From positions 349 through 64,348 of the forward strand of contig JAENWJ010000003.1 of the NCBI GenBank assembly GCA_016649995.1: DNA of 64,000 nt. Reading direction: 5' to 3'. The position numbers were made by a program, and so were the translations under genes. Every line of letters starts with the position of its first letter. Positions within the stretch are counted from its first letter, which is position 1. Below are positions 1-19,120 of the stretch, one piece after another. A model generated the notes under the pieces. The model was not told the origin of the DNA, did no database searches, and saw nothing but the letters and a program-made list of their open reading frames with translations. The stretch is from Peptostreptococcaceae bacterium (GTDB lineage: Bacteria > Bacillota > Clostridia > Peptostreptococcales > BM714).

Positions 1-1
1 T

Positions 2-1378
2 TTTTATGGAGCTACCTATTTATTTGACGCTTTAGGCGACAAGCTTGATGTCACCAAAGACTTGAGAACCTGCTTCCCGGACACCTATAAGCAGATCTTG
101 TCTATTGCATATTACTTGATTCTTGAAGATCGGAATCCATTAAGTCGCTTTCCGAAATGGGAGCGTACTCACAAACATCCTTACGAGAAGAATATTTCAT
201 CTCAAAGAAGCAGTGAACTTTTTTCATCCATCACAGAAGACAGCAAAGAACACTTCTTCAAACTCCAAGGAAAACGCCGAACTGAAAATGAATACTGGGC
301 CTATGATACAACCAGTATATCTTCCTATTCGGAATCGCTTAAGCAGGTCAAGTATGGCAGAAACAAGGACCATGATCCTCTGGCGCAGATTAATCTAGCA
401 TTGTTGTTTGGTGAAACATCCAATCTTCCTTTTTATTACCGGAAGCTACCTGGAAACATACCAGATGTCAAAACATTGAAAAACCTTCTTGCAGACATGG
501 ATTTTTTAGGCTTTGCCAAGGTGAAACTGGTAATGGATCGTGGTTTCTACAGCGAAGATAATGTCAATGCACTCTATCAAAATCACCTAAAATTCTTAAT
601 GGCAACAAAAGTGTCCTTGAAATTTGTACGTAAAGAGTTAGATCAGGTACGTGATACCATAAGGTCTAGGTCAAACTACAACACCATGTACCAACTTCAT
701 GCACATACAGCCATGATTGCTTGGGAGTATACACAAATCCGTCCTTATAAATGTGATGTCATCAAAGAGTCTCGAAGAATGTATCTCCACATCTATTACA
801 ATGGCGAGAAAGCCCTTGAACAGGAAAACAAGTTCAACCTTCTCCTGGATAAGCTTGAAGAAGAACTAATTTCAGGCAAGCGAAAGCCAGAAAATGAGAA
901 GCAATACAATAAGTATTTTGATGTAACAACAACACCAGTAAGAGGAACCAAAGTAACTGCCAAACAGGAGGCAATCAATCAAGCTCAAAAAGACTATGGT
1001 TTCTTTGCATTGATTAGCAACGAAATCAATGAACCGATAGAAGCATTGGAAATCTACCGAAACAAAGACTTGATAGAAAAAGGATTTGGTAATTTGAAGG
1101 AACGTCTGAATATGCGACGTACAACCGTTTCATCTGATAGTGCCTTGGAAGGTAAGCTGTTTGTGCAATTCATAGCGTTAGTCTATTTGTCTTATATAAA
1201 AAAACAGATGTCTGATCAAGGTCTTTTCAAAAAGTATACAATGCAGGAGCTACTTGATGAATTGGATATCATTGAATGCTTTGAGCAACCAGGAAATAAC
1301 ATACGTATTGGTGAAATGACCAAGAAACAAGAGGGACTTTATCACAAGCTTGGTGTTAAGCCACCAACCACGTTATAA
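2..1378 (+). mobile_element. IS1634-family (IS4-superfamily) DDE transposase gene, 5' end outside the window
   Basis: The reading frame stays open back to base 2 (FYGATYLFDALGDKLDVTKD...), so the ORF-track start at 62 is not the true start. DDE candidates are YDTTSI, VMDRGFYSEDN and Y-x2-K-x3-E-x6-K (YRNKDLIEKGFGNLK). No terminal inverted repeat could be identified. Confidence 0.8.
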
Positions 1379-1446
1379 TTGCTCGGGAATTCAGGTTACA
1401 ACAAAGGACGATTAAACGGAAGCAAACAGCGGATTAAGGAGAACGT

Positions 1447-2475
1447 ATGTTTAAAGGAAAGCTTTTTTCATTTAAGCGCAAAATTATCTCGATTGATGAA
1501 TTGTCAAAAATTGCGAGTGTAGGCGAGTACTATGATTTTGCAATGCTCGTCGAGGGATTTATTGAGAAAGGTATACTAAAGCCGGTAAAGTCTTCAGGCA
1601 GGAACGGCAGGAGTCCGTCCGTTTTTAATGAGTACAGGATAATTAGGCCAAAAGCTGATTATGCTGAGGCTATTGAAGATATCAAGAAGCTGCATCCGCG
1701 GTTCGATCATTCCAAATATGCGAAACGACCATCGGATTATATCAAGAACAAGCGAGAAATCGATTTGCTAAGTGATTTCTTGTGGAAAAATGAAGGGCAG
1801 TTTAATGAAGTAATGTCGGTTAACGAGAGATCTTTTCAGATATGGGGAGAAGAAAAATTGTTGAAGGGTGGTTCTGTTGTCAAGAAAATTTTCAAGTACA
1901 ATGGCTGGGACATGTCAGAACTCAATTGTTTTGAAACGCCTGAGCCTTTTTTTGACTATGTTTTTTCTTTTGGGGAAAAAACGAATGTTCTGATTCTCGA
2001 AAATAAGGACACTTGGTTTGGATTGAGGAAGATCATGAAGGAAGAAAGCAAGAACAGACTTTTTAGGGAATACAATGTGCTGCTTTATGGAGAGGGAAAG
2101 AAGATCATAAGCAGAAGAATGAGACTTGAGGACTATAATTTTTTGCTCGGGAATAGCAATAACCGATATTTCTATTTTGGAGATTTGGATTATGAAGGCA
2201 TAGATATTTTTCAGAAGCTTGTATTGCGGAATGAGGGGATTAGCATTTCTCTTTGCACGGAGCTGTACACTTGGATGGTCGAGGAGTCGAAAAAGTATGA
2301 ATTGCCATTCACTAAGAAAGGGCAGAAAGAGGTGGACGTTTCGGGTTTCCTGAGTTGGTTTTGCGAGGATGATGCCTTGGTGATAAGAAACATATTGGAA
2401 AGCAGAAGGTATATTCCCCAGGAAATATTGAATTACGCCATGCTAAAGAAATGTATGGATAAGGGGGAGGCATAG
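1447..2475 (+). CDS. JetD/MksG-like Toprim-domain protein (putative nuclease subunit of a Wadjet-like system)
   Basis: 342 aa. Toprim-type signature: Glu185 in VLILENKDTWF (nt 1999-2001), DxD in YFYFGDLDYEGIDIF (D246/D248, nt 2182-2190), and a C-terminal RYIPQE. SD AAGGAG lies upstream of the ATG. The TAG stop directly abuts the next ATG. Confidence 0.7.
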   Translation: MFKGKLFSFKRKIISIDELSKIASVGEYYDFAMLVEGFIEKGILKPVKSSGRNGRSPSVFNEYRIIRPKADYAEAIEDIKKLHPRFDHSKYAKRPSDYIKNKREIDLLSDFLWKNEGQFNEVMSVNERSFQIWGEEKLLKGGSVVKKIFKYNGWDMSELNCFETPEPFFDYVFSFGEKTNVLILENKDTWFGLRKIMKEESKNRLFREYNVLLYGEGKKIISRRMRLEDYNFLLGNSNNRYFYFGDLDYEGIDIFQKLVLRNEGISISLCTELYTWMVEESKKYELPFTKKGQKEVDVSGFLSWFCEDDALVIRNILESRRYIPQEILNYAMLKKCMDKGEA

Positions 2476-4092
2476 ATGATAGACTTTCTCGACGGATTTG
2501 AAAAGAGAATGGAGATAGTGGGGGTTGTTGAATCCATTGTAAATCGCAAAAAAAAGGATATGGAGATTGAAAGTCTTTTCGGAGACAATGATTTTGTGAG
2601 CCTGGTTTTTTCGGTGCTTCTTTATATCATGGAGAAAACGCTTTCGGAGGACAGCGATTGCGATATTGACCATATTCAGGGTTTCATAGGGAGCATACTC
2701 CCGGAACATTATGGTCTTGAGATAGACAAGGGCGACCTTGGTAATTTGACGGGATATATAATAAAGAATGTGCTTCAAAATGAGGGAGTTTCATATTCTT
2801 TTAGTGCAGTGAGCTATTCGTCAGGAAATAAAATGGATATTCCGATTAGATTGATAAGGGACCGCGTGGTAGAAGACGGGGGCTTATATAGGGTAAATTA
2901 TTCGTTGACGGATCAGGGATATGATTTTCTTTTCAGAACCAAAGAGGTGGATCAGGAAATCAAGATGACCATAGAGGAATTGAAGTTAAGGGAGCTTATA
3001 AAGCGAAAAAATTTCAAGAAGGCCCATGACCAAAGCCTGCAGCTAATACAGATGGTGCGGCAAAAGAAAAAGGAAATCAGTTTCTTTGTGTCGAAAATAA
3101 AGGAAAATATTCATGATGTGGATATTGGAGAATATGAACAGCTTGTAGACAGTACATATAAGTTGCTGGGTGAGGAATACAGCCTTATGGGGGATATCAT
3201 GGATATGGCCCTGAAGTCGGAAAACAGGATTAGGGAAGATTGCCAAGCGGGCATGGAGCTTGACGATAAATTGAGAAAAGCTCAGCATGACATAAAGAAG
3301 ATTGGCGAAAATATAAAAGCGGCTCTGAGCGAGCAGAGGCATCTAATAGTAAACCGCCAGAGCCTGACAAAGATATATAAGGCTACGATGAGCGATTCGT
3401 TTGAGCGCAATATTGAAAATAGGTATGACATGGAGGATATCATATTAAGACAGATGGAAGAGCATGTCGATATGGCAGATGAGTTCTGGCAACTTGTAAA
3501 TCCGCTTTTCATGCCGAATGTATACTCTAACATCAATATAAGGAGCATGTATGAGCCCCAAGGAATGATACAGCTCGAAAGCGGCGAAGAAAGTGCTGTT
3601 ATCGAAAAGGAAGAGCTCATGGAAGATTGCGAGAGGGAAAGGATTGAAGGAATAAATGAAACGTATGTAGAGATAATGGAATATCTTTTGACATATGTAC
3701 GTGAAAAAAGAGAGGTCAGTTTTGATGAGGTGATAAATTCACTTGAGGCCGATAAGGAAACATTCGAAAAGTTCACCAAAGACAGGCTTCTCTTTATGAC
3801 AATCCTGAAGCTTTATGACATAGGATCTATAGATGTTGAAGAATGGGAAAGACGGGGCGGGAAGGTTGTCATGAATCTGTCTGAAGAGTTTAACCTGGAG
3901 TATTGCCTCGGCAGGCTGGCGGATGAACGGGAATGTCTCCGCGGAGTCAAGAGGCTTGATGTATCGAAGCTTGGAGACGAACTCATAGAAGTGGAGATAA
4001 ATAGAAGCAAGGAAGGCGCCTTAAAAGAAATAAGCAAGATAGAGATGTCTAATTTTTGTATAAAGGTGGTAAAACGGGATGAATTCAATTAA
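2476..4092 (+). CDS. Hypothetical protein, kleisin-like (JetA/MukF position) by architecture only
   Basis: 538 aa with globular N- and C-terminal parts and a charged, heptad-rich central region (EELKLRELIKRKNFKKAHDQSLQLIQMVRQKKKE...). SD GGGGGAGG upstream. Its position between the Toprim gene and a small acidic protein plus SMC ATPase suggests kleisin. I recognise no catalytic motif. Confidence 0.45.
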   Translation: MIDFLDGFEKRMEIVGVVESIVNRKKKDMEIESLFGDNDFVSLVFSVLLYIMEKTLSEDSDCDIDHIQGFIGSILPEHYGLEIDKGDLGNLTGYIIKNVLQNEGVSYSFSAVSYSSGNKMDIPIRLIRDRVVEDGGLYRVNYSLTDQGYDFLFRTKEVDQEIKMTIEELKLRELIKRKNFKKAHDQSLQLIQMVRQKKKEISFFVSKIKENIHDVDIGEYEQLVDSTYKLLGEEYSLMGDIMDMALKSENRIREDCQAGMELDDKLRKAQHDIKKIGENIKAALSEQRHLIVNRQSLTKIYKATMSDSFERNIENRYDMEDIILRQMEEHVDMADEFWQLVNPLFMPNVYSNINIRSMYEPQGMIQLESGEESAVIEKEELMEDCERERIEGINETYVEIMEYLLTYVREKREVSFDEVINSLEADKETFEKFTKDRLLFMTILKLYDIGSIDVEEWERRGGKVVMNLSEEFNLEYCLGRLADERECLRGVKRLDVSKLGDELIEVEINRSKEGALKEISKIEMSNFCIKVVKRDEFN

Positions 4093-4780
4093 CTCGGCAG
4101 TGAAAATTTTTAGGGTGCTATTGGAAAATGGGCAACTCGATAGGGAAGACAGCAGCGATCTTTTTGTCGAATACTTGAATTCGGAGGTGCAGGATGCTCT
4201 CGGCGAATTCGAGGAAGAAATGGAATGCAGGATAATAAAGATAAAAAACACTATTTACCTTCTTCCGAATTGCGATAACGGATTTTTGGGATTTAAAGGG
4301 AAGAATTTCAAGGGCTATTTTGGGTCTAATTCGACACTTAAGGACAACTATCTTGCTTACTATATCACGATGTTTCTATTGTTCAAGTTTTATGGAGGGA
4401 AAAATAAGAATCCCAAGCAACGGGAGTTTATTAGGGTGATGACACTGATAGAAGAACTTGATATGAGGTTTGATTCTATTTTAAGCAGGGCGCGGGAGGA
4501 AGTGCTTGAAAAAGAAGAGGAGCTTAATGTCAATCTGATAGGTATCGCCGAGCTCTGGAACCAGAAGATTGCACTCGAGATGAACAAGCGCACTACGAAG
4601 CACGGAACGGTAACAAGGGTTTGCAATTTACTAAGAGACGAGAAGCTTGTAAGATTCATAGAGGACAAAAAGGAAATACGCACGACTAAGAAACTCGACG
4701 ATCTTATGACATATTATTTCCTTAACGACAGCAGGATTGACGAGATAAACGGACTATTCCGGACGGGGGGGGTGGAATAA
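4079..4780 (+). CDS. Hypothetical protein, KITE-like (JetB/MukE position) by size and context
   Basis: 233 aa. It overlaps the upstream gene by 14 nt and its stop overlaps the next start (TAATG). SD AAGGTGG. Size and position match DUF4194-type subunits. There is no direct motif evidence. Confidence 0.45.
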   Translation: MNSINSAVKIFRVLLENGQLDREDSSDLFVEYLNSEVQDALGEFEEEMECRIIKIKNTIYLLPNCDNGFLGFKGKNFKGYFGSNSTLKDNYLAYYITMFLLFKFYGGKNKNPKQREFIRVMTLIEELDMRFDSILSRAREEVLEKEEELNVNLIGIAELWNQKIALEMNKRTTKHGTVTRVCNLLRDEKLVRFIEDKKEIRTTKKLDDLMTYYFLNDSRIDEINGLFRTGGVE

Positions 4781-7700
4781 TGCCTCAGATTAACAGGATT
4801 AGGATTATTAATTTTTCATATAATAACAACAACAGGAACATACTTGACGAGACCTTCGATTTTTACCAAGGGGAAAACGCTCTTTTGAGCCTAAAGAACG
4901 GGGGCGGAAAGAGTGTGCTTGTGCAGCTGTTGTTTCAGCCGATTATTCCCAAATCCAAACTCATGGGCAGGAGGATAGAGGATTTTTTCATAGGCAGGAA
5001 TACTCCTTCGTACGTGATGATAGAGTGGAAGCTCGAGGATGAAGGTGGCTATCTGCTTACGGGAATCGGACTGGCAAACAGGATAGCGAGAGGCGGAGAA
5101 GGCGAGGAACCGGGCAACAATGTAAAATATTTTACATTTACATCGGCATATCGTAATGAGAATGCTTTCGACATAGTTGGGATTCCCCTGGTCGAAAAAC
5201 ATGGAAACGGCATTAGCATAGAGGAGTTCAGGGAAGCAAAGAGAATCATTGGAGGGAAGGAAAAGGCCTCAGGTTCAGATGTCAGGATGTTTACCGAAGA
5301 GGATGCAGTTGAGTACAGAAGATATCTCGAGAGTTACAACATTTTTCGGGACGAGTGGAAATCGATAGTTCTCAAGATAAATGAGTCTGAGGGTGGGGTT
5401 ATCGAGATTTTCGAAAAATGCAAGACATCGCAGATATTGATGAATGAATGGATTTTGAAATCGATTGAAAAAGTTGTAAATAAAGAGGACCGGGATCAGA
5501 ATATGTTGGAAAAGATGCTCGAAAATCTGGTCGAGGAAATGATAGACAACGAAGCGTATATCTACGAGAAGGAAATTTACCATGAGTTTCTCAAGGATAC
5601 CGAGGACCATCTTATCCGGCTTGACGAGTTGATGATTTCCATCGACAAGGAGAAGGAAATAGAGGATTCCATGGCGAGGATGTACGGAAGCCTCTTAAAA
5701 AGGCTCGGGATTGCCAACAAGGAGACGGAAACGCAAAGAATAGCAATATCTGCTTGCAAAGAGGAACTGAATAGGATAACTCTCGAGGAGCGTTCGAAGG
5801 AATACTACGATGCTCTTGATAAGGTCGGGAAATTGTCGAGAGTGAGAGCTGAAAAAGAGGAAGAGCTGAAGGCTGCCGAAAAAGAGCTTGAGAATAATAA
5901 GAGGGGAATCGCGGTTCAGGAAGCCGCAAGGGGATTCGCGCGCATAAAAGCGCTTAAGCAAGCAATTTCAATTATAAAAGAGAAGATCGGCAAGATAAAA
6001 AATGATGGGGACAATAGGAAAAAGATAAAGAACCTTGAATATTCGTTAAGGATTGCGTACGAGAAGGCTTTGGAGAAACTGAGGGGCGAGATAGACGGAG
6101 CGAGTTTGAGAAAGAAGGAAATAGAAAGTGAAATAGGTGAATTGGATGAGGTTTTGAGGGCCATCGGCTCCAATACTGAATTGCTTCAAAGAAAGTTAGG
6201 CGGAGCCGAAAATAAAGTGAAAGATTTTCTAATTTATGAGAAGAAGGCTGCTGAAGCCCTTTCCATAAAATACGAAAGAAATCTGCTGGGAGAGATAGAG
6301 AATGATTATTATGAAAGATATTCTCTTGCTGCAGAAAATGAGCTCAATAACTTGAAGGAAGAAAAAGCTGATATTGATGGTGATGTTGTAAGGGCAAATG
6401 AGAGGGAAGTGCAGATAGAAAAGGACTTGGAGGAGAAAAGGCAAAGTGGGCAGGATGCGGCGGTAGAGTTTTCGAGGCTCGCGGGCAAAATCGAAGACTA
6501 TCGAGACAAGGAAGAAGCAGTAAAGCCTTTGCTTGAGAGATACGAAATTGATTTCAGGGAAAGATTTCGGCATGGAGAGAACAGTATGATCCTTTGCGGG
6601 ATCATAAAAGAGCTTGAAAAAAAGGAAAGGGAGATAGATCTGGATGTGAGAGTCATGAGGGAAAACATTGATTCATTGAGGGACGGATCGCTTCATGTTT
6701 CCAAGGAATTCAAGCAATGGCTGATAAACCACGATATTGGTTTTGAAACCGGGGAAAACTATCTTAGGAAGCAGAAGCCGGAAAGAAGAGGCGCGCTTAC
6801 AAGCAAAAATCCTATGCTTCCGTTTTCGTTTTTGCTCTACGAGGATGACATTGCAAGTATAGGGACAATGGAAATTGGTATAGACATGCATCAGATGGTG
6901 CCGATTATGTCCTATGGGGACGTGAAAAATAAATTTGATTCAGAAGGAAATTTGCTTCAGGTGCAGGACGGAATTCGTTTCATATGCCTCTACGACGAGA
7001 AGATGATAGATACCGACAATTTGGAAATTTACATGGAAGAGAAAAAAAGAGAATTGAAAGAAATAGAGGGTAAACTCGGGCACTATAGGGAGGAACTCAA
7101 TTGCGCGAGGAATGATGCGCAAGAATTGAATCTATTCGCTTTTGACGAAAACTATGCCTATGAGCTTGAAAAGAAGAATGAAAGCGCCTTGGCGCGCATT
7201 GCTTCGATAGACGAGGAAACAATAAGGCTTGGTGAAGAGCGGGACAGAATCAAGAAAAGACTCAAAGAGTGCAGAGAAAGGATCGTCGAAATCGGTTCGC
7301 TAGCAAAAGAGTGCGAAGCGAGGAAGCGGGGGCTTGGGGAATTTATAGAAAAAGAAAAAGGGTATCAGGCAAGCAGGCAGCTTGTAGCAGAGTGCGAAAA
7401 TGGCTTGCGTGGGAATAAAAAGGAAAGGGAAAGAAAAGAAAAAGAAAAGGATTGCCTAGGTAAAGAGAAGGAATCCATAGGTGATATTATAATGAGGCTG
7501 GGCATGGAGATAAAAGATAAGGAGAAGGGGTATGCGTGCTATGCGGAGGCCGTGGACGGAGAGCTTTTGGATGATGATCTGGAATCCATGGAGGGAAGGC
7601 TGAGGGTCCTGCATAGCAAGATATCGTTACGCCTTGAGGAGCTTGAGAAGGAGCTGGAGGAAAAGTTCGGAGAGTTAAAAGAAAAAGAGACCATGCTTGA

Positions 7701-9177
7701 AGTGTGCGAGTTAAAGGAATCGGAATACAGGGATGTTGCCTTTGACTTGAAAAGGTTGAAGGAGCTTAAGGTTATGGGGCGCGCTTTGGAGGCTAGTTGC
7801 GGGGAAGCTGATGAGGCTTTGAACAAAGCGTATGGAAGCCTCAAACATGCCGAGGGGATGCTTGAAACTGCGCAAAAGGAAATATTGAAACTGACAGATG
7901 TCATTTTGGAAAGATCATCGATAAAGATGAATTTTGAGGGCCGTAGGGAGACGGAAGTAGCCGGAATGAGAAGCGCCGAAAAAAGGATTATTGAGCTTGA
8001 GAAGATATGCAGTGAGTGCAGGGACATAATAAGTGATATAAAAGCGAAGATAAACATTGGTTCATATAGCAAAGACGCCGGATATGAAATAGTAATAAGT
8101 TTCAGGGAGGATTTTGGGAAGCTTGAAATGGATCTTCGGGACGTAAAGGCAGAGAATGAAAAGCTTGAGAGGAATGCAGAAATAAACTATGGAGACATGA
8201 AAAACGAATTTGTCGATAAGAATGTAAACCTTAAAAAAATCTTTGACGGACTGGGATCGTTAGTTCAAAAGGCAAGGAGCAATAAGGATGACTACTATTA
8301 TCTGTGGGAAAGGATGACAGATAGCAAAGAAATATTGGACAAGTTGATAAAGGTCTGTGAACAAATGCTTTCGAGTTTCGAGAAGACCAAAAGGGACATG
8401 ATACAACATAGTTATATGCATGGGAAGCAGGTATACGACGAAATTCAAAAGATTGGCGAGAATTCTTCCATAAAGCTTGAAGGGAAGTCGCGCCCGGTTC
8501 CTATGCTGAAGATTGATATGGAGCCGCTTGAAGCCGTGGAGAAGGAAAATATCGACAAGATGAAAATGTATATAGAGAATTGCATTGGGATAATAAAAGA
8601 GGACATGAAAGAGAACAAAAAAATTGAAGATGTTCGCAAGAAAATTCACAGATATATGTCGACGAAGGAACTTTTAAATGTACTTTCCGATATGGGCAAG
8701 ATGACTGTTCGCGCATACAAGATAGATGTGAATTCTAGAAACAACAGATACAAAACATGGGAACAGGTGATAAAGGAGAATTCCGGTGGGGAAAGATTCG
8801 TTTCGTTTTTTGCCGTGCTTGTGGCGTTGATGTCCTATACGAGGACGAGCCTTAAGCTTGAGGATGACTATAGAAGGAACAGGGATACAAAGGTACTTGT
8901 TATGGATAATCCCTTTGGGCCAATATCATCCGAGCATTTGCTCAAGCCGCTGTTCAAGATAGCAGAGAAATACAATACACAGCTTATATGCCTTACGGAT
9001 TTGAAACAAAATTCAATCCTCAACTGCTTTAATCTTATTTACATGATTAAGATAAGAAAAAGCGTATTCGGTACTAGTGAATACATTCAAGTAGAGAGGC
9101 AGATAAAAAACGGCGCTGAAATGGAACAGGACGAAAAACTCGAAAAGGCCGTAATGATGTCGCAAATCAGTTTTTAA
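4780..9177 (+). CDS. SMC-like ABC ATPase with very long coiled coil (JetC/MukB-like)
   Basis: 1465 aa. Walker A LKNGGGKS (nt 4891-4914). More than 1000 aa are E/K/L/R-rich coiled coil, interrupted by a non-coil segment at about aa 640-750 (hinge candidate). ABC signature SGGERF starts at nt 8782. Walker B is KVLVMDN (Asp at nt 8905-8907). Confidence 0.8.
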   Translation: MPQINRIRIINFSYNNNNRNILDETFDFYQGENALLSLKNGGGKSVLVQLLFQPIIPKSKLMGRRIEDFFIGRNTPSYVMIEWKLEDEGGYLLTGIGLANRIARGGEGEEPGNNVKYFTFTSAYRNENAFDIVGIPLVEKHGNGISIEEFREAKRIIGGKEKASGSDVRMFTEEDAVEYRRYLESYNIFRDEWKSIVLKINESEGGVIEIFEKCKTSQILMNEWILKSIEKVVNKEDRDQNMLEKMLENLVEEMIDNEAYIYEKEIYHEFLKDTEDHLIRLDELMISIDKEKEIEDSMARMYGSLLKRLGIANKETETQRIAISACKEELNRITLEERSKEYYDALDKVGKLSRVRAEKEEELKAAEKELENNKRGIAVQEAARGFARIKALKQAISIIKEKIGKIKNDGDNRKKIKNLEYSLRIAYEKALEKLRGEIDGASLRKKEIESEIGELDEVLRAIGSNTELLQRKLGGAENKVKDFLIYEKKAAEALSIKYERNLLGEIENDYYERYSLAAENELNNLKEEKADIDGDVVRANEREVQIEKDLEEKRQSGQDAAVEFSRLAGKIEDYRDKEEAVKPLLERYEIDFRERFRHGENSMILCGIIKELEKKEREIDLDVRVMRENIDSLRDGSLHVSKEFKQWLINHDIGFETGENYLRKQKPERRGALTSKNPMLPFSFLLYEDDIASIGTMEIGIDMHQMVPIMSYGDVKNKFDSEGNLLQVQDGIRFICLYDEKMIDTDNLEIYMEEKKRELKEIEGKLGHYREELNCARNDAQELNLFAFDENYAYELEKKNESALARIASIDEETIRLGEERDRIKKRLKECRERIVEIGSLAKECEARKRGLGEFIEKEKGYQASRQLVAECENGLRGNKKERERKEKEKDCLGKEKESIGDIIMRLGMEIKDKEKGYACYAEAVDGELLDDDLESMEGRLRVLHSKISLRLEELEKELEEKFGELKEKETMLEVCELKESEYRDVAFDLKRLKELKVMGRALEASCGEADEALNKAYGSLKHAEGMLETAQKEILKLTDVILERSSIKMNFEGRRETEVAGMRSAEKRIIELEKICSECRDIISDIKAKINIGSYSKDAGYEIVISFREDFGKLEMDLRDVKAENEKLERNAEINYGDMKNEFVDKNVNLKKIFDGLGSLVQKARSNKDDYYYLWERMTDSKEILDKLIKVCEQMLSSFEKTKRDMIQHSYMHGKQVYDEIQKIGENSSIKLEGKSRPVPMLKIDMEPLEAVEKENIDKMKMYIENCIGIIKEDMKENKKIEDVRKKIHRYMSTKELLNVLSDMGKMTVRAYKIDVNSRNNRYKTWEQVIKENSGGERFVSFFAVLVALMSYTRTSLKLEDDYRRNRDTKVLVMDNPFGPISSEHLLKPLFKIAEKYNTQLICLTDLKQNSILNCFNLIYMIKIRKSVFGTSEYIQVERQIKNGAEMEQDEKLEKAVMMSQISF

Positions 9178-9365
9178 CAAATAAAGATGAGAGGATTCGG
9201 ATACGGAAGCGGATATGGTCCGAGGAACGGAACGATAAGAGCAGGCAATGGCAGATAGATTTACAGAAAAAGAATAAGATAAATAATATCGAGGAGGCAT
9301 CTTTCGATTGATTTCGGGGGTTGATTGTGTGTGTGAATATAAATATTGCAAATTGTGATAAAAAA

Positions 9366-9397
9366 TTAACATTTCGATGCGTCTTATGGTATATAAT
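9366..9397 (+). promoter_or_regulatory. Putative sigma-A promoter for the 9427 gene
   Basis: TTAACA (9366-9371), an 18-nt spacer, then TGgTATATAAT (extended -10, 9387-9397). SD AAAGGTGGGGA precedes the ATG at 9427. Confidence 0.4.
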
Positions 9398-9426
9398 GAA
9401 AGTAGAAACCTAAAGGTGGGGATATC

Positions 9427-10239
9427 ATGAAGCGGTTCGAAAGTTACATTCAGGAGCATATGTGCCACTACAAGATGGACTTTTTGAGAGTCAAGGAAAA
9501 AGGTGTTTACCGGTATGACGGGCGCGTGTACAATTATTGCTTCATTTTGCCCGAGGGGGACAAGGAAAAGAACATAATCCAGAAATACAGGGAACGTTTT
9601 TGGAACTCGTCCTATGCGCTGAAAGAGAATGACGAGGGCTTTTGCCATCTCGATTCTGCCCAGGCCATTTGCATAAACTTTTTTTATCCATTGATAGAGG
9701 GAGGATATCTTGAGGATTTCATCCAAATAATCGGCATGGGTAACAGAAAAATCAATTACAAGGATTGCATTAATCGCGAAGATCACTTTGAGCTTGACAT
9801 AGAAACGGAGATTGGTCATATGTTTTTCAATATCAAATACACAGGAAAGGCTTATGGTAGTCTTGAGGATACTGAGGAAAACAGAAAGGCGTATGAGGAT
9901 ATTTATAAGCCGGCGCTTGAAAAGTCGGATGCCATAAGGGATGTTTATAAGGAGAAAAAGATATTCTTCAAGCATTATGAAATAATGGAATCGCTTCTTA
10001 AAATTAAAGGGGAAGATTCTGTTGTATTCATGCTTCCTTATGAGAACGAGATGCTTAAGAGCTACATACACATAATTGAGGATATTCTAAAGCCAACTTA
10101 TCTGGAAAAGCTTAAGATTGTTTATTGGGAGGATATTTTTACATCCCTTCCCGATTCGATGATGCCTATGTACAGCGAGTTTATCTTGAAATATTTTCCG
10201 TATATAACATACAAGGTAAAGAGACAAATTCTCAAATAA
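9427..10239 (+). CDS. Hypothetical protein, possible PD-(D/E)xK nuclease fold
   Basis: 270 aa. HLDSAQAICINFFYP resembles the N-terminal helix motif of some restriction-endonuclease-like families. A D...E-x..K-like core is seen in FELDIETEIGHMFFNIKYTG. It has its own promoter and terminator. Confidence 0.35.
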   Translation: MKRFESYIQEHMCHYKMDFLRVKEKGVYRYDGRVYNYCFILPEGDKEKNIIQKYRERFWNSSYALKENDEGFCHLDSAQAICINFFYPLIEGGYLEDFIQIIGMGNRKINYKDCINREDHFELDIETEIGHMFFNIKYTGKAYGSLEDTEENRKAYEDIYKPALEKSDAIRDVYKEKKIFFKHYEIMESLLKIKGEDSVVFMLPYENEMLKSYIHIIEDILKPTYLEKLKIVYWEDIFTSLPDSMMPMYSEFILKYFPYITYKVKRQILK

Positions 10240-10292
10240 TGCAGATAGCATAAGTGAAAAGATTTTGCCGAATTTCAAATATTTTTATATTA

Positions 10293-10318
10293 AAAGACAC
10301 CCGCTGGGTGTCTTTGTC
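10293..10318. terminator. Rho-independent terminator hairpin
   Basis: AAAGACACCC-gct-GGGTGTCTTT, a perfect 10-bp stem followed by a short T run, 54 nt after the stop at 10239. Confidence 0.6.
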
Positions 10319-10385
10319 AATTGATAGGCAAACCCTGCTAGAAGTGACGCGGCTTCTAAATTTGTGGTTATGCAAAGGGTTCTAA

Positions 10386-10394
10386 TGGTATAAT
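10386..10394 (+). promoter_or_regulatory. Putative extended -10 promoter upstream of the patatin gene
   Basis: TGgTATAAT at 10386-10394. The -35 region is weak. Confidence 0.4.
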
Positions 10395-10470
10395 CTGAAT
10401 AGAAAGAAATCTCAGCATTGAGGCATGTTTCATTTGTCTTTTTGAGGGAGTGACAATAGGAGGATAATTT

Positions 10471-11775
10471 ATGGGGAAGCTGGGTTTGGTTCTTGAAGGC
10501 GGAGGCGCCAAGGGAGCTTATCAGGTTGGAGCATACAAGGCTCTTATGGAGCTTGGAATAGAGATCGACGGGATTGCGGGAACATCCATTGGAGCAATCA
10601 ACGGTGCGATGATAGCTCAGGGTTCTTTCGAGAGGTGCTACGATGTTTGGCACGGGATAAGACCGTCAACGCTTTTTGATGTTGACGAGGGTTATATTAA
10701 ACGCATAATAGGCTTTGAGCTTGATGAAAAGAGCCTTTCTTATGCGGCAAAAGCTATCAAGGAAATAATGCAGAACAATGGTCTTGACACAACCCTTGTG
10801 AAGGGCATAATCAGGGACAATATAGATGAGAAAATGCTTAGGGATTCGAAAATGGATTTCGGGTTTGTTACTTTTTCTCTCACGGACATGAAGCCTCTTG
10901 AGTTATACAAGGAGGATGTTCCCTTGGGCAAGATGCATGATTATATAATGGCTTCTGCGTCTGTGCCTGTTTTTAAGTTAGAAAAGATAGACAATAAGAT
11001 TTTTATTGACGGGGGCTTTCATGACAACATGCCTGTGAATCTCCTAGCGAGAAAGGGCTATAAGGATATAATAGTAATAAGGTCCTTTGGCATGGGCAGG
11101 GTTAAGAAGGTGGACCACGAGAACCTAAACATAACCTACATAACTCCATCGGAACCACTGGGCCGCACACTGGATTTTACCAACGACAAGGCGCTAAGGA
11201 ACATCGAAATGGGCTATTATGATACGCTTAGGTTATATAGGGGATACAGAGGCGAAAAGTATTGCATTGAAACAGACGCGGGAGAAGATTTTTTTCTGGA
11301 TTTTTTCAAGGGCCTGGATGAGAAAACCGTTCTTGAAATGGGAAGAGTTTTCGGAATTTCGGGAATGCCTTGGAGGCGCATGCTGTTTGAGCATATACTG
11401 CCTAGGATGGCTGCGGTGCTCGACCTTAAGGATACGGCTACATATGGAGACCTATTGTTGAGATTTCTGGAGCAGCAGGCGAAGGCGTACAATGTAAATC
11501 GTTTTGCTGTTTATAGCATGGAGGAGCTTTTTAATGAGGCAAAGAAGAAATATAAGCCAACGAACAGTGGCGTTTTCAACAAGCTGCCGGATTTTGTCAA
11601 GCAAAACGAGCTTTTGATGCTTTCACGAAACGTCAAGGACGAAATACTTGCTGAATTTATGGGTATTCTCATGAATAGGGAAGAAAAAAAAACGGACTTA
11701 TTTATTTCAGATAAAGCAAATCGAAAAGTTGCGAGAGATATTGAAAAAGGGAGGAAGAGAAATGGAAAACAATAA
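10471..11775 (+). CDS. Patatin-like phospholipase
   Basis: GLVLEGGGAKGAYQVG (oxyanion GGxK/R), GTSIGAING (GxSxG nucleophile) and FIDGGFHDN (catalytic DGG). SD AGGAGG upstream. Confidence 0.85.
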   Translation: MGKLGLVLEGGGAKGAYQVGAYKALMELGIEIDGIAGTSIGAINGAMIAQGSFERCYDVWHGIRPSTLFDVDEGYIKRIIGFELDEKSLSYAAKAIKEIMQNNGLDTTLVKGIIRDNIDEKMLRDSKMDFGFVTFSLTDMKPLELYKEDVPLGKMHDYIMASASVPVFKLEKIDNKIFIDGGFHDNMPVNLLARKGYKDIIVIRSFGMGRVKKVDHENLNITYITPSEPLGRTLDFTNDKALRNIEMGYYDTLRLYRGYRGEKYCIETDAGEDFFLDFFKGLDEKTVLEMGRVFGISGMPWRRMLFEHILPRMAAVLDLKDTATYGDLLLRFLEQQAKAYNVNRFAVYSMEELFNEAKKKYKPTNSGVFNKLPDFVKQNELLMLSRNVKDEILAEFMGILMNREEKKTDLFISDKANRKVARDIEKGRKRNGKQ

Positions 11776-13485
11776 ATTTTACGAGGAATGGCTTGCTGCA
11801 AAAGAAATAGATGAAGATACAAAATTGGAGTTGAAAGGTATTGCAGGCGACGCTGAAGAGATAGAGGACAGGTTCTATAAGGACCTGGAATTCGGGACCG
11901 GAGGAATGCGAGGCATTCGCGGGGCCGGCCGGAACAGAATAAACAAATACAATATAAGAAAGGTTACCCAGGGACTGGCTTCGTATCTCGATAAAAATGT
12001 GGACGGAGCGGCGGAGAAGGGTGTTGCAATTGCCTATGACAGCCGTATAAAGTCAGATGAATTTGCATGGGAGGCGTCAGAGGTTCTTGCCGGAAACGGC
12101 ATAAGGGTTTATCTTTACGAGGGAATAAGATCCACTCCCCAGCTTTCATTTACAGTGAAGAGGTTGGGTTGTGCGGGGGGTATTGTCCTCACCGCCAGTC
12201 ATAACCCGCCGGAGTATAACGGGTACAAGGTTTACGGGGAAAACGGGGGACAGATAGTCCCCAAGATAAGTGAGCCTCTTATTGCTGAGGTTAAAAGGAT
12301 TGAGGGCTTCAAGGGGATTTTGAGAATGAATCGCGAAGAGGCTCTAAAAAAGGGAATGATAAAGCTTATAGGCAGCGAAATGGACGAGGAATATTACGAA
12401 TCGGTTTTAAGTTTGTCGACTGTGAATGCTGAGAACCGCGAGGCTGTAAAGGGTTTAAAAATAGTATATACGCCGCTTCACGGGGTTGGCTTAGAGCCTG
12501 TTACAGAGGTGCTTTCACGGGATGGATTCCAGCATGTGACTGTGGTGCCTGAACAGGAAAAGCCCGATGGAACCTTTCCGACGGTGAAAAAGCCGAATCC
12601 TGAGGAGCCGGAGGCGCTTAAAATGGCGCTTGATCTGGCAGAGAAAAACGGAGCGGACCTGGTAATAGCTACCGATCCGGATTCGGACAGGGTTGGACTT
12701 GCGGCAAGAAACAGCCAAGGAAGGCTTGAATCGCTTTTGGGAAACCAGGTGGGACCGCTTCTTATAGATTATATTCTTTCGCATAAAAAGCTAATGAAAG
12801 GTGATTTTATCGTCAAGACGGTTGTGACATCGGACATGGGAGCAGCTGTTGCAAGGCATTACGGCGTGGACAGTTACGAGACTCTGACAGGCTTCAAGTG
12901 GATTTGCGACAAGGCAATGGAGCTTGAGAGAGAGGGCGGAAAGCGCTTTGTTTTCGGATACGAGGAAAGCATAGGGTACCTTGCAGGAGACTTTACCAAG
13001 GACAAGGATGCAGTTATTTCTGCAATGATAGCGTCTGAGATGGCAGCCTTTTTCAAGGCCAATGGCATGACTCTGCATGATGCACTTAGGGCATTGTGGG
13101 AAAGGCACGGCTTCTACAAGGACCACCTGATTTCGCTTTGGCTTGAGGGACGCGACGGCAAGGAACGCATAGGGAGAATAATGAAAAGCTTCAGGAATAA
13201 TTCGCCAAGGATAATCGGCGGAGCTGCTGTAACTGAAATAGTTGATTTCAATTCATCGACTAAAACCTATGTGGACAGAAAGGAATCGGAAATTTTGAGG
13301 TTCCATAAATCCAATGTTTTGAAATTTAAATTTGGAGATAGTTGCTGGTTTGCCATAAGGCCCAGCGGAACCGAACCGAAGATTAAGATATATTTCTCGG
13401 TCATGGATAGGGATGAGGCGAAGGCTTCTAAAAAGATGGAGGATATGATAGGTGAAGTCAGCAAATTGATTGAAGAGGTAAAATA

Positions 13486-13486
<1 letters not shown>
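11762..13486 (+). CDS. pgcA: Phosphoglucomutase/phosphomannomutase, PgcA-like
   Basis: Active-site loop TASHNPPEYNGYKVY, ATDPDSDRVG metal loop, GYEESIGY. I chose the ATG at 11762 (MENNKFYEEW) because SD GGGAGGAAG lies upstream of it. The track start at 11729 has no SD. Confidence 0.85.
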
Positions 13487-13600
<114 letters not shown>

Positions 13601-13628
13601 AGAAAAAATGTTTTATGGGGAGGTTTGC

Positions 13629-14759
13629 ATGGAAAAGGGGTTCTTGCATGTTGTGGGAAGAAACGATGAAGATGAATTTTTGGAAAGCGGATGCACTGCA
13701 ACACGATTAACTGGGGTTGCCGGGTGTTATGTTCTTTGGAAGGTGCCGAGTGGACAGCTCATGCAATTCTTTTGCATGGATTTTGAGAGCGAGGGTATAA
13801 AGGGCTACAAGAGTCTTCTTAATGGAACCGAAGAGCAAAGGCAGGACATGATGAAGGAGGCAATAGGTGTTTACGGAGAGAATTTCGAAAGTCTTTCCGA
13901 GAGGGATGCTATAGATTTGCTGAATCTAATGTATGCTGTAAATCTAAAATTTCATCTGCCTCTTCCGGGAAAAACTGCTGAATATGCTCATTTGCTTAAT
14001 CGCGAAAAAGTTGTGCCGGATGATGCAAGGAGGATTCTGGATAAGAGGCTTTCGAAACAAATGGAAACTGATTTTGAAGCCGCGAATTATTATATGAGTA
14101 GGGCTCTTGCAAATGACATCGAGGCTGAAAAGCAGCTTTTGGTTGTGGGAAGCAGGCTTGAGCTTGCTACATTGCCCGGGAAATCCATTCTCCTTAAAAA
14201 CGATGTTATTCCAAGAGAATGTTTTCCGGGGACAAGGTACGTCAATTGCACTGCATTGGCAAGAAAGGGAACCGATTATTTTATCGTAATGGCGAGATTA
14301 AGCCTTATGGATACCGAAGAGGGCATAAAGCTTATTGGTGCGCAGTTTCTCGAAAAGAAACATTTGACGGCTGCAGAGGCCTCAATGATTATAAAGAGGA
14401 CTGAATATTTGATGGTTTATCAGGTTGCGGACAAGGAGTGTTTTGGACAAGCTCTTTTGGTTGAAAAGCCTTGTGTCGAAAGGGAGCAACATGAAAAGGG
14501 AATGCTTTACACGCAGTTTAAGCGCGACAATAATCATTATAAGGAGCAGACTTATTTCATGAATGATGATATTTTCGGTTTATATTTTCTCATGGATGAA
14601 GGCAAACTGGTTGCTGTAACATATAGCGAGGATGGAATAAACGAAATAAATAAATTCTTTAGTAGGCCATGCTTTAGAAAATGCCTGACGATAGAAAAGG
14701 CTTTTTATTCTGAAAGCCCCTTATTTTATCATATTGTGCATCAAAAGGAAGAGAAGTAA
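13629..14759 (+). CDS. Hypothetical protein, paralog 1 of a pair flanking pgi
   Basis: 376 aa from the ATG at 13629 (SD GGGGAGG 6 nt upstream). It is collinear with the 16295 gene: TRLTGVAGCYVLWKVPSGQLMQFF..D.ESEGIKGYKSLLN versus TRLMGVVGVKVCWKLESGDFFYQFF..DSEAYGIDGYESLIN, and LYTQFKRDNNHYKEQTYFMNDDIFGLYF versus LFTYFNKDNDHVKEDLYYLNGDIHSVYF. Confidence 0.7.
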   Translation: MEKGFLHVVGRNDEDEFLESGCTATRLTGVAGCYVLWKVPSGQLMQFFCMDFESEGIKGYKSLLNGTEEQRQDMMKEAIGVYGENFESLSERDAIDLLNLMYAVNLKFHLPLPGKTAEYAHLLNREKVVPDDARRILDKRLSKQMETDFEAANYYMSRALANDIEAEKQLLVVGSRLELATLPGKSILLKNDVIPRECFPGTRYVNCTALARKGTDYFIVMARLSLMDTEEGIKLIGAQFLEKKHLTAAEASMIIKRTEYLMVYQVADKECFGQALLVEKPCVEREQHEKGMLYTQFKRDNNHYKEQTYFMNDDIFGLYFLMDEGKLVAVTYSEDGINEINKFFSRPCFRKCLTIEKAFYSESPLFYHIVHQKEEK

Positions 14760-14764
14760 AATAA

Positions 14765-14822
14765 GTGGGCAGTGGGCAGTGGGCAGCTGGCAGTAAAAGA
14801 CAAAGGCAAAAGCAAAAGACAA
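14765..14822 (+). repeat. Heptanucleotide array (GTGGGCA x3, GCTGGCA, then AAAAGAC/AAAGGC/AAAAGC units)
   Basis: Read directly from the sequence. It starts 6 nt after the stop at 14759. Confidence 0.9.
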
Positions 14823-14930
14823 CGCATCGTGTGATGTCGCGTAATCCGAAGTTAACGTGCTTTGGGAAGAAAAAACAGTAAAGAAGTTTGCAGTGTGAAG
14901 GGTAAAAAGGAATATGGAAAGGGGAGTCCT

Positions 14931-16280
14931 ATGGATATCAGGCTTGATTATGATCGGGCAAAGACGGATTTATCGGGAATTATTCATGAGTTGGAGCATG
15001 CCTTCAGCAGAATTTTAAGGAAAAGAAATCAAGGTTATCTTGGATTCATGGATTTGGTGAGTCATCAAAAGGATATTGAAAGGATTAAGAAAAAGTCAGA
15101 ATGGATAAGGCAAAGGTTTGATAATTTTGTTGTCATAGGCATTGGAGGGTCGAGTCTTGGCAGTTTGGCTCTGCATGAGGCCTTGAACGGAAAGTATTAC
15201 AATGACAAACCGAAATCCATTCGGAATGGTCCCAAATTTTATGTGTTGGATAATCCTGACCCTGAAAGTGTTGGTGACCTGCTTGATATTCTGGAGCCCG
15301 AAAAAACGGTTTTTAATGTTATAACTAAATCGGGCAGTACTTCAGAAACCATGTCAAATTTTATGATAGTCTACGACTGGCTATATAAAAATCTTCCGGA
15401 AAAGGCTGTTGCCGAGCGTATCATAGCAACCACCGATGCAAAGGATAGCATTCTTTTGGATATTGCCCGGGAAAAAGGTCTAGACACTTTTTATATACCT
15501 GGAAATGTAGGGGGGAGATTCTCGGTTCTTTCTCCGGTGGGACTGCTTTCGGCTTGCACCTGCGGCATAGATATTGACGGGCTGCTCATGGGGGCCGAAG
15601 ATATGGCGAATCGCTGCAACAATTTTTACCCGGAGGACAATCCTGCACTGATGGATGCCGCTGTGCATTTCATGATGATGAAAGCCGGAAGGAATATTTC
15701 CGTTTTGATGCCCTATGCCGACAGGCTAAGATATTTGTCGGACTGGCATTCCCAGCTTTGGGCTGAAAGTCTTGGAAAGAAGAGCGACAATGATGAAAAG
15801 GTTGTCCATACCGGGCAGACTCCTGTCAAGGCGCTTGGCACGATAGATCAGCATTCGCAGGTTCAGCTTTATGCCGAGGGTCCGGACGATAAGATTATAA
15901 CTTTTTTAAGGGTTGAAAGGTTTCGCAGGGATATGGCTATTCCGGGACGTTTTTCAGGCTACAAGAATCTTGAGGTGCTTGCGAATAGGGGCTTGTCAGA
16001 ATTAATGAATGCGGAACAATTGGCCACAGAGGATGCTCTTTCTGAATTTGGAAGGCCAATTCTTACCATCGTTTTTCCTGAGATCAATGAGGAGACTGTG
16101 GGCCAGTTTATATATATGCAGGAGCTCAAAACGGCTTATTGTGGGGAGCTTCTAAACATCAATGCTTTTAATCAGCCTGGAGTTGAATTGGGCAAGGTTC
16201 TCACGCGGAAGTATATGATGAAGACGGGTGAAAATCCGGAACGGTTTAAGAATCAGACTTTGTCAAAGGATGGAATCTAA
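14931..16280 (+). CDS. pgi: Glucose-6-phosphate isomerase
   Basis: IGIGGSSLG, VITKSGSTSET and GGRFSVLSPVGL motifs. The ATG at 14931 (MDIRLDY) follows SD GGAAAGGGGAG. The track start at 14862 was rejected. Confidence 0.9.
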   Translation: MDIRLDYDRAKTDLSGIIHELEHAFSRILRKRNQGYLGFMDLVSHQKDIERIKKKSEWIRQRFDNFVVIGIGGSSLGSLALHEALNGKYYNDKPKSIRNGPKFYVLDNPDPESVGDLLDILEPEKTVFNVITKSGSTSETMSNFMIVYDWLYKNLPEKAVAERIIATTDAKDSILLDIAREKGLDTFYIPGNVGGRFSVLSPVGLLSACTCGIDIDGLLMGAEDMANRCNNFYPEDNPALMDAAVHFMMMKAGRNISVLMPYADRLRYLSDWHSQLWAESLGKKSDNDEKVVHTGQTPVKALGTIDQHSQVQLYAEGPDDKIITFLRVERFRRDMAIPGRFSGYKNLEVLANRGLSELMNAEQLATEDALSEFGRPILTIVFPEINEETVGQFIYMQELKTAYCGELLNINAFNQPGVELGKVLTRKYMMKTGENPERFKNQTLSKDGI

Positions 16281-16294
16281 GGCAGGTGGTAGAA

Positions 16295-17476: not shown

Positions 17477-17502
17477 AAGGGTATAGGATAGGGGGAAGCG
17501 GT

Positions 17503-18426: not shown

Positions 18427-18440
18427 GAGGGGGAAAAAAG

Positions 18441-18905: not shown

Positions 18906-19085
18906 AAAGTGGAAAGTGGAAAGAAAAAGATAAAAGATAAAAGATAAACGATAAACGATAAAAGAAAAAGATTAAAGAAAAAGATTAAAGAAATTCAAAG
19001 TGTTCATAAATAAGGGTTCAAGTGTTTGGTTTGAGTTTTTAGCTTTTGTATTTACTGCAAACTGCCAACTGCCATCTGCAAACTG
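18863..19085. repeat. Largest composite heptamer array: AGTAGAA/AGTGGAA units, ATAAAAG/ATAAACG units, AAAAAGATTAAAG x2, then CTGCAAA/CTGCCAA/CTGCCAT units in inverse orientation
   Basis: Forward-type units occupy 18863-18990. Units at 19055-19085 are the reverse complement of the GGCAGTN type seen elsewhere. Confidence 0.9.
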
Positions 19086-19120
19086 AAAACCCCCTCTTCT
19101 TCGGAAGAGGGGGTTTGTTT
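19086..19120. terminator. Bidirectional rho-independent terminator between convergent genes
   Basis: AACCCCCTCTTC-ttcg-GAAGAGGGGGTT, a 12-bp stem with A/T runs on both sides. Confidence 0.85.

Follow-up and report, generated by a model that had tools for sequence, protein, structure and literature searches.

Wadjet type III was reportedly defined by Doron et al. in 2018, and an operon of Bacillus thuringiensis is said to be its representative in the literature. The three Wadjet types are told apart by their operon organisation and domain composition, and the extrusion-cleavage activity shown for types I and II is considered "by extension likely" for type III, which is itself described as "largely uncharacterized" (bioRxiv 10.1101/2025.03.10.642339). 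Type I, as found in the JetABCD systems of E. coli GF4-3 and P. aeruginosa PA14 and in MksBEFG of C. glutamicum, combines an SMC ATPase, a kleisin, a KITE protein and a Toprim nuclease, and its genes run in the order A-B-C-D. Type II, exemplified by nvJET-II of Neobacillus vireti (PDB 9QE0), is likewise an anti-plasmid SMC complex, in which the KITE subunit is a tandem protein of ~388 aa with four winged-helix domains. Both type II and type III are without a hinge channel and tend to have long coiled coils resembling those of MukB (PMC12647877). The gamma-proteobacterial condensin MukBEF, which provides the best structural matches for two of the proteins described below, is a housekeeping chromosome organiser with no nuclease subunit.

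Gene content and order of the locus

The window, by which we mean the whole 64-kb stretch of DNA analysed here, comes from a Peptostreptococcaceae MAG and carries four plus-strand ORFs (Table 1) that the initial annotation had read as a single operon of translationally coupled genes. This reading was confirmed, with coordinates and junctions exactly as it had given them. As read from the sequence, the stop codon of jetD3 abuts the start codon of jetA3 (TAG directly followed by ATG, 2475/2476), jetA3 and jetB3 overlap by 14 nt (4079-4092), and jetB3 and jetC3 share one base within TAATG (4780). A purine-rich RBS precedes every start codon, the four in gene order being AAGGAG, GGGGGAGG, AGGTGG, and GGTGG.

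Each of the four proteins matches its PADLOC Wadjet type III model with almost complete coverage of both protein and profile, and a chance match is ruled out by profile E-values that lie between 1e-79 and 1e-163. When the PADLOC profiles for the other types were considered, proteins A, B, and C had no match to any of the type I or type II models (JetA1/2, JetB1/2, and JetC1/2), while JetD3 yielded only weak cross-matches to the JetD1 and JetD2 models (1.4e-5 to 5e-3, with 1.4e-5 for JetD1). Thus, the locus is very probably an intact, canonical type III Wadjet operon, jetD3-jetA3-jetB3-jetC3, located on the chromosome of this Peptostreptococcaceae bacterium. A Wadjet (JetABCD/MksBEFG-class) identity with a Toprim nuclease, a kleisin, a KITE protein, and an SMC-like ATPase had already been recognised by the initial annotation, and it is upheld by the PADLOC profiles together with the Pfam JetD_C and Foldseek matches presented below. 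The same annotation had suggested that the second and third proteins might lie outside current family models, which is not the case, as both are hit by type III models (Table 1) and the third protein is also a member of Pfam DUF6063.

Table 1. Features of the type III Wadjet locus and its immediate surroundings (positions refer to the window).
Feature	Coordinates	Strand	Evidence
IS1634-family DDE transposase gene	2..1378	+	NCBIfam NF033559 1.1e-91; Pfam DDE_Tnp_1; context, outside the Wadjet system
Leader upstream of jetD3	1374..1446	+	TATAAT, weak -35, RBS; read from sequence
jetD3, predicted Toprim-domain nuclease effector, 342 aa	1447..2475	+	PADLOC JetD3 PDLC00592 7.9e-93, residues 5-339
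jetA3, predicted kleisin subunit (MukF-like), 538 aa	2476..4092	+	PADLOC JetA3 PDLC00562 2.4e-160, full length
jetB3, predicted KITE subunit (MukE/JetB-like tandem winged helix), 233 aa	4079..4780	+	PADLOC JetB3 PDLC00576 3e-79; Pfam DUF6063 3e-44
jetC3, SMC-like ABC ATPase, 1465 aa	4780..9177	+	PADLOC JetC3 PDLC00583 1.9e-163, residues 1-1440 vs 1-1447 of 1471
Weak terminator-like hairpin (putative)	9301..9320	+	Consensus scan: 7-bp stem, T-rich tail; in the 249-bp gap after jetC3

The operon had originally been proposed as a novel, permuted Wadjet in which the nuclease had been moved and shortened, the ATPase enlarged, and the kleisin and KITE might lie beyond the reach of existing family models. 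The order of its genes, the sizes of its proteins, and the lack of a Pfam match for JetA3 are indeed real differences from types I and II. With respect to type I, the order is D-A-B-C rather than A-B-C-D, the JetD1 models have ~390-410 positions versus ~345 for JetD3, JetC is larger in the window locus, and no sequence similarity to type I models or PDB chains is detectable for JetA3, JetB3, and JetC3. With respect to type II, the gene order also differs, A, B, and C are without a sequence-level match, and a single 233-aa KITE takes the place of the tandem protein. However, these features turned out to be common to the whole type III family. A search of reference genomes for the locus with a single-protein query found nothing, while an alignment query succeeded and provided a sample of 80 homologous loci from GTDB reference genomes. 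The order D-A-B-C was present in every one of the 73 loci in which all four genes were detected, and the remaining seven consist of six loci cut by contig ends and one deletion remnant. The same order is seen in plasmid pJFP838A of C. perfringens, as annotated in RefSeq. Median family lengths for D/A/B/C are 347/536/235/1469 aa, compared with 342/538/233/1465 aa in the window, and the type III profiles themselves span 345-350 positions for JetD3 and 1453-1494 positions for JetC3. A D-first order, a JetD of ~345 aa, and a JetC of ~1465 aa are therefore norms of type III and are not peculiar to this locus. They are best used for calibration, as a signature of the type instead of as the permutation, the truncated nuclease, and the unusual MukB-sized ATPase for which they had been taken. 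That D-first is normal is based upon the 80-locus survey, plasmid pJFP838A, and the published distinction of the types by operon organisation, whereas the searchable literature yielded no passage that spells out the type III gene order.

With all four proteins scoring strongly against type-III-specific models over their full lengths and with a D-first order that is common, a combination that the initial annotation had itself named as the mark of a known system, the claim of novelty falls, and we give almost no credence to the reading as a new, permuted system. Type III Wadjet is an already catalogued system, and the locus is an ordinary, typical copy of it. It resembles other type III loci in its full-length profile matches, gene order, protein sizes, and conserved motifs of the Toprim and ATPase proteins, the D-N Walker B described below among them, and nothing structural sets it apart. 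What distinguishes it is a sequence that is 47-71% identical to its nearest homologs (in the nine loci that come first in the gene-order survey) and an IS1634-family element directly upstream.

Nuclease, kleisin, and KITE subunits

The JetD/MksG-type Toprim signature pointed out in the initial annotation withstood examination in an 18-sequence family alignment, in which E185, D246, D248, E250, Q325, and E326 are all invariant and P324 is at least 90% conserved. All 18 family members match Pfam JetD_C (best 5.5e-9), although the window JetD3 by itself scores 18.3 bits, which is under the gathering threshold of 22 bits. From its sequence, JetD3 is thus a predicted Toprim nuclease. Searches against PDB chains gave no meaningful sequence matches for JetD3 (queried both as a single protein and as a profile), for the JetA3 and JetB3 profiles, or for JetC3, and Pfam scans of 26 JetA3 homologs produced only scattered noise. 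Because these sequence searches were of little use, the kleisin and KITE assignments were tested by structure.

The AF2 model of JetA3 (pLDDT 74.8, pTM 0.35) begins with an N-terminal helix/beta-wing domain, continues with long helical hairpins and a disordered linker (residues 347-381), and ends in a C-terminal domain, which is the domain order of a MukF-like kleisin. Its top six Foldseek matches in the PDB are all MukF, with a best E-value of 7.7e-5 and TM-scores of 0.21-0.35. The predicted model supports a MukF-like kleisin architecture, with a domain arrangement that should be regarded as unreliable given the pTM and the range of TM-scores. For the model of JetB3 (pLDDT 81.2, pTM 0.74), the top 18 Foldseek matches in the PDB are exclusively MukE, type I JetB, or type II JetB (E-values of 2e-4 to 4e-2, probabilities of 0.97-1.00, TM ~0.4). 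The type I JetB structures 8dk1 and 8as8 are among the chains matched, as is, weakly, the type II chain 9qe0_D. These matches support a predicted KITE fold for JetB3.

No sequence-level similarity links the window proteins to MukBEF. By structure, JetA3 is best matched by MukF and JetB3 by MukE, and neither is closer to its type I counterpart than to the Muk protein, so the operon might also be read as a MukBEF/MksBEF-like housekeeping condensin with a role in organising or segregating the host chromosome and no part in plasmid defence. The roughly MukB-like size of JetC3 and the location of the locus, which is chromosomal and adjoins housekeeping genes, would be in keeping with such a role. 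However, the operon invariably includes a translationally coupled gene for a Toprim nuclease whose catalytic residues do not vary. Bacillota normally organise their chromosome with Smc-ScpAB, which further argues against a second housekeeping machine. The distribution of the locus also speaks against it, as homologs are patchy across Bacillota, the best of them is only 59% identical, one genome carries both an intact and a degraded copy (loci L036 and L072), and accessory genes, an IS element among them, flank the locus. A housekeeping condensin is therefore very unlikely. The accessory character that the initial annotation had attributed to the locus is borne out by the patchy distribution, the distance to the nearest homolog, and the adjacent IS element, and it fits the published defence role of Wadjet. 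JetD3 homologs numbered 1261 at E<=1e-5. Among the plasmids in PLSDB, only three carry a JetD3 homolog, and all three are at least 404 kb in size, which is compatible with a type III system aimed at small circles.

The JetC3 ATPase and a candidate mechanism

The N-terminal Walker A and the C-terminal signature that the initial annotation had read in JetC3 are both present. A crude composition profile suggests heads at ~1-230 and ~1200-1465, a hinge-like break at ~640-760, and ~850 aa of coiled-coil-like sequence, for which the more than 1000 aa given initially would be somewhat too high. Walker A reads NGGGKS and contains K44, while the signature reads NSGGERF, with SGGE at 1336-1339. The Walker B of the initial annotation is present as well, but the canonical catalytic Glu does not follow its Asp. 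Instead, the Walker B strand VLVMD places N1378 directly after D1377, and D1407 occupies the H-loop position. Thus, JetC3 from the window departs from the canonical SMC/MukB/Rad50-type site (hhhhDE plus an H-loop His). This departure is a property of the family, as none of these motifs in the window protein deviates from the family consensus, which is GGGKS for Walker A, SGGE for the signature, and hhhhDNPFG for Walker B. Among 150 JetC3 representatives, Walker B is D-N-P in 144 and D-E-P in none, while 108 have D and 19 have H at the H-loop position. Another His, H1386, is near-invariant in JetC3 and lies at the D-loop position (...DNPFGPISSEH). Similarity to SMC proteins was otherwise slight, consisting of a weak match of the coiled coil to SMC_prok_B and a weak alignment of the signature motif with the SMC head 6qj0.

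In canonical SMC and MukB heads, the Walker B motif carries D-E rather than the D-N of JetC3, and in canonical SMC proteins the engineered change of the catalytic Glu from E to Q is the classic hydrolysis-dead mutation. With the Walker B Glu absent and the H-loop His usually absent, the JetC3 ATPase cycle may differ from that of types I and II. The presence of N at the position of the catalytic Glu would imply that type III either hydrolyses ATP via relocated catalytic residues or does so very slowly. Candidates for such residues would be E1385, E1328 in the invariant W-E, and H1386. We consider it possible, if somewhat doubtful, that the type III family as a whole runs a non-canonical SMC ATPase cycle. 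Canonical ATPase chemistry should thus not simply be assumed for JetC3, while its membership in type III is unaffected. We found no mention of the D-N Walker B of JetC3 in the searchable literature. If it were confirmed to alter the ATPase chemistry, it would be of interest to the SMC and loop-extrusion field, type III being unreconstituted.

The literature that we found reports no biochemical reconstitution of a type III system, so the mechanism proposed here is drawn by analogy from types I and II. A JetC3 dimer would be closed by the JetA3 kleisin, which would in turn bear a JetB3 KITE dimer, and two such motor units would be paired via the kleisin N-termini. The complex would load onto DNA and extrude loops with ATP. 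On a small circular molecule, extrusion would run to completion and the two motors would stall against one another, a state that may recruit or activate a dimer of the JetD3 Toprim nuclease, resulting in cleavage of the plasmid. Linear and chromosome-sized DNA would be expected to escape.

Flanking DNA and a possible promoter region

The IS1634-family transposase gene lies upstream of jetD3 in the same orientation, and its frame is already open at base 2 of the window, with the 5' end past the left edge. Only 68 bp separate the end of this ORF from the jetD3 start codon. In an independent assembly, Logan contig L001 starts at position 1368 of the window, a start point that suggests the boundary of a repeat. 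There is no second copy of the element within the 64-kb window.

The closeness of the element to jetD3 raises the question of whether the operon is expressed. At 1374-1379 there is a perfect TATAAT, which shares bases with the transposase stop codon and is preceded, across an 18-nt spacer, by a weak -35 (TTGGTG), while the RBS of jetD3 is found at 1434-1439. From these elements, the leader at 1374-1446 may serve as a promoter. It is conceivable that the element has come to lie between jetD3 and its native promoter, leaving an operon that is intact but transcriptionally silenced or deregulated, which would be compatible with its type III identity. The short distance between the transposase stop and the jetD3 ATG and the assembly break at 1368 both point in this direction, as does a consensus promoter scan in which no plus-strand site between 1379 and 1446 passed the thresholds. 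However, the perfect TATAAT argues against silencing, the co-orientation of the transposase gene makes read-through possible, and the four full-length ORFs with their conserved catalytic residues show no sign of decay. Overall, we regard silencing or deregulation as unlikely, though by no means negligible.

The IS element and further accessory genes flank the Wadjet locus. Downstream of jetC3, a 352-aa minus-strand ORF (9013-10071) was rejected as a gene, because jetC3 and the REase gene both extend into it and coding bias there strongly favours the plus strand. The REase-ARP and patatin genes were considered as conserved fifth and sixth components and were also rejected, because neither was matched in any of the 80 loci. 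The nuclease-like gene that the initial annotation had noted downstream is accordingly not a conserved partner (0/80 loci). It should be noted that NCBI labels all four Wadjet proteins "hypothetical". The locus is one further instance of type III Wadjet, and its practical use lies in re-annotation.

Assignment of the operon to Wadjet type III

The operon comprising jetD3, jetA3, jetB3 and jetC3, which encode a predicted Toprim nuclease, a MukF-like kleisin, a KITE subunit and an SMC-like ABC ATPase, had initially been annotated as a Wadjet-like anti-plasmid system, and judged from its sequence this identification is correct. We scanned all four encoded proteins against the PADLOC models, a profile search that the initial annotation had proposed, and each gave a strong, essentially full-length match to a type-III-specific model. 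JetD3 matched PDLC00592 (7.9e-93; residues 5-339 on profile positions 7-344 of 346), JetA3 matched PDLC00562 over its full length (2.4e-160), JetB3 likewise matched PDLC00576 (3e-79), and JetC3 matched PDLC00583 (1.9e-163; residues 1-1440 on 1-1447 of 1471). The PADLOC type I and II models of JetA, JetB and JetC returned no matches to the window proteins, and the only cross-type matches were weak ones of JetD (1.4e-5 to JetD1). Pfam was much weaker than PADLOC on these proteins: the JetD_C score of this JetD3 copy lies below the Pfam threshold, the 538-aa JetA3 has no Pfam match, and the 233-aa JetB3 matches DUF6063 (3e-44). The Pfam results explain why no recognizable motifs had been seen at first. 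The NCBI label for the window's Wadjet protein (JJE29_01070, on a 65.8-kb contig of a Peptostreptococcaceae MAG) is hypothetical protein.

The positions and junctions originally reported for the four ORFs agree exactly with the sequence. The TAG of jetD3 directly abuts the ATG of jetA3 (2475/2476), jetA3 and jetB3 overlap by 14 nt (4079-4092), and jetB3 and jetC3 share one base of a TAATG (4780). A purine-rich ribosome-binding site precedes each of the four start codons. Within the jet genes, long ORFs on the minus strand (e.g. 9013-10071) are probably shadow ORFs.

Features of the Wadjet type III locus and its downstream neighbors
Feature	Position	Strand	Length	Remarks
jetD3	1447-2475	+	342 aa	
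jetA3	2476-4092	+	538 aa	
jetB3	4079-4780	+	233 aa	
jetC3	4780-9177	+	1465 aa	
D1377-N1378 of JetC3	8908-8913			Walker B
D1407 of JetC3	8998-9000			H-loop position
REase-ARP-family gene	9427-10239			downstream of jetC3; PF22558, 1.8e-15; no PADLOC match
Patatin-like phospholipase	10471-11775			downstream of jetC3; NCBIfam 1.2e-6; PADLOC 'Effector' 3.3e-8

Gene order and subunit sizes across the family

The nuclease gene in first position, a seemingly short JetD and a MukB-sized JetC had led to the proposal of a permuted and possibly novel Wadjet. An alignment of 18 JetD3 homologs was used to retrieve 80 loci from species-representative genomes, and the four jet genes were placed in each by tblastn. 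The order D-A-B-C was found in 73 of the 80, the remaining seven being six loci cut at contig ends (D, DA or DAB) and one deletion remnant; no other order occurred in this set. Plasmid pJFP838A of C. perfringens, as annotated in RefSeq, is arranged in the same way: a JetD-domain protein comes first, followed by hypothetical proteins of 547 aa and 1450 aa with a DUF6063 protein between them. Family median lengths are 347 aa for JetD, 536 for JetA, 235 for JetB and 1469 for JetC, so that neither the window's JetD nor its JetC is of unusual size. Wadjet-III, like Wadjet-II and MukBEF, is also on record as having no hinge channel and usually long coiled coils (PMC12647877). As order and sizes match both the family survey and the literature, the three apparent oddities are normal for, and define, a type that is already established. 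All four proteins score strongly against standard models and the D-first order is common; thus, a permuted or novel architecture is ruled out, the locus is an already known Wadjet type III, and it is for that reason of low interest in itself. The family is large, with 1261 JetD3 homologs at E≤1e-5 and 803 cluster representatives (50% identity) of the JetC3 C-terminal head.

Several individual loci are worth recording. In a Muiribacteriota MAG (L066), the type III operon has foreign genes embedded at 5736-7576 and 8340-9530: a HEC-01A/HEC-01B pair (AAA_21 ATPase and DUF4276; PADLOC 1.2e-132 and 1.8e-77) between jetA3 and jetB3, and weakly matched HATPase_c and STAS-like proteins between jetB3 and jetC3. 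The Syntrophomonadaceae MAG CA_145 has two loci, an intact D-A-B-C operon (L036) and the deletion remnant (L072, 10001-11727), in which JetD residues 5-278 are joined to JetC residues 1148-1458, with jetA, jetB and most of jetC gone. Type III loci L020, L052, L066 and L076 come from MAGs labeled Spirochaetia, Candidatus Muiribacteriota and the archaeon Methanosphaera. In percent identity to the window proteins, the Methanosphaera locus resembles loci L077 (Clostridiales) and L080 (Ruminococcus), for which the isolate names seem to be related, so that a binning error is possible.

Subunit folds and the JetC3 ATPase motif

PDB chains include no sequence-level relatives of JetA3, JetB3 or JetC3, and Pfam has none of JetA3 either; therefore, the kleisin and KITE assignments were tested by structure. 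The JetB3 model (40-sequence alignment; pLDDT 81.2, pTM 0.74) had KITE subunits as all 18 of its best Foldseek PDB matches (E 2e-4 to 4e-2), including MukE (9gmb, 3rpu, 3euh, 7nyw, 7v8p), type I JetB (8dk1, 8as8) and type II JetB (9qe0). In the JetA3 model (45 sequences; pLDDT 74.8, pTM 0.35), a helix/beta-wing domain at the N-terminus is followed by long helical hairpins, a disordered linker (347-381) and a C-terminal domain that is predicted well. MukF accounts for each of the six best PDB matches of this model (best 7.7e-5), with low TM-scores (0.21-0.35) as expected of a flexible multi-domain protein. The predicted models thus support the kleisin and KITE likeness first proposed for these two subunits. 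In JetD3, six residues (E185, D246, D248, E250, Q325, E326) do not vary across the 18-sequence alignment, conservation at P324 is 90% or more, and all 18 family members match Pfam JetD_C. JetC3 contains both a Walker A motif with K44 and an SGGE signature, and its composition profile fits a head-arm-hinge-arm-head layout with the hinge at ~640-760. What this analysis establishes is the set of components, the folds of two of the subunits and the catalytic motifs.

In SMC, MukB and Rad50 ATPases, the Walker B Asp is directly followed by the catalytic Glu. JetC3 has an Asn in the position of this Glu (VLVMD-N-PFGPISSEH). A weak profile match to the SMC head 6qj0 aligns the signature motif in the expected way and thereby puts D1377 at the Walker B site. 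The D-N motif hardly varies among 57 JetC3 homologs taken from the loci, and D-N-P occurs in 144 of 150 family representatives and D-E-P in none; it is family-wide and hence not a defect of this copy. At the expected H-loop His position, 108 of the 150 have Asp and 19 have His, and a His seven residues past DNP, after PISSE, is at least 90% conserved in the family. We found no mention of these JetC3 features in the searchable literature. They do not alter the type III identification; given the D-N Walker B and the H-loop Asp, however, a canonical chemistry cannot be assumed for the type III ATPase.

By analogy with types I and II, JetABC3 motor units would extrude DNA loops, paired motors would stall once a small circle had been completely extruded, and JetD3 would then cut the DNA. 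A JetD3 homolog was present in only three of 72,556 PLSDB plasmids, of 404, 898 and 900 kb and all predicted to be non-mobilizable. Their large size fits a system intolerant of small circles, in a tiny sample (n=3).

Genomic neighborhood and expression

The ORF upstream of jetD3, in the stretch 2-1446, encodes an IS1634-family DDE transposase (NF033559, 1.1e-91), the frame of which is open to, and cut at, the left edge of the window. It has the same orientation as jetD and stops 68 bp before it. An independent short Logan assembly of the same sequence (L001) begins at position 1368, which suggests a repeat boundary at that point. The native promoter of jetD may have been cut off from the gene by the IS. 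A promoter scan of the gap between transposase and jetD yielded no qualifying site, and a perfect TATAAT at 1374-1379 overlaps the transposase stop codon. With the IS end ~70 bp away and no scanned promoter, but with the TATAAT and a co-oriented transposase, expression of this copy is plausible, though unproven.

The IS element, Wadjet III, the REase-ARP-family gene and the patatin-like phospholipase form a small accessory patch; everything else in the window is chromosomal, with genes for phosphoglucomutase, glucose-6-phosphate isomerase and SAM synthetase as well as a large flagellar regulon. The phospholipase is weakly similar to CBASS and anti-phage lipases. Both downstream genes are absent beside the type III operons of all 80 other loci, indicating that they are neighbors rather than Wadjet components; they may be independent defense genes. 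The glucose-6-phosphate isomerase gene lies between two plus-strand ORFs, 13608-14759 (383 aa) and 16286-17476 (396 aa), neither of which has a match in Pfam, PADLOC or NCBIfam. Long ORFs over the whole window lie mostly on the plus strand. GC skew, in 1-kb windows across 1-20000, is positive from 501 to 20000 (+0.07 to +0.43), the first 1-kb window alone being slightly negative.
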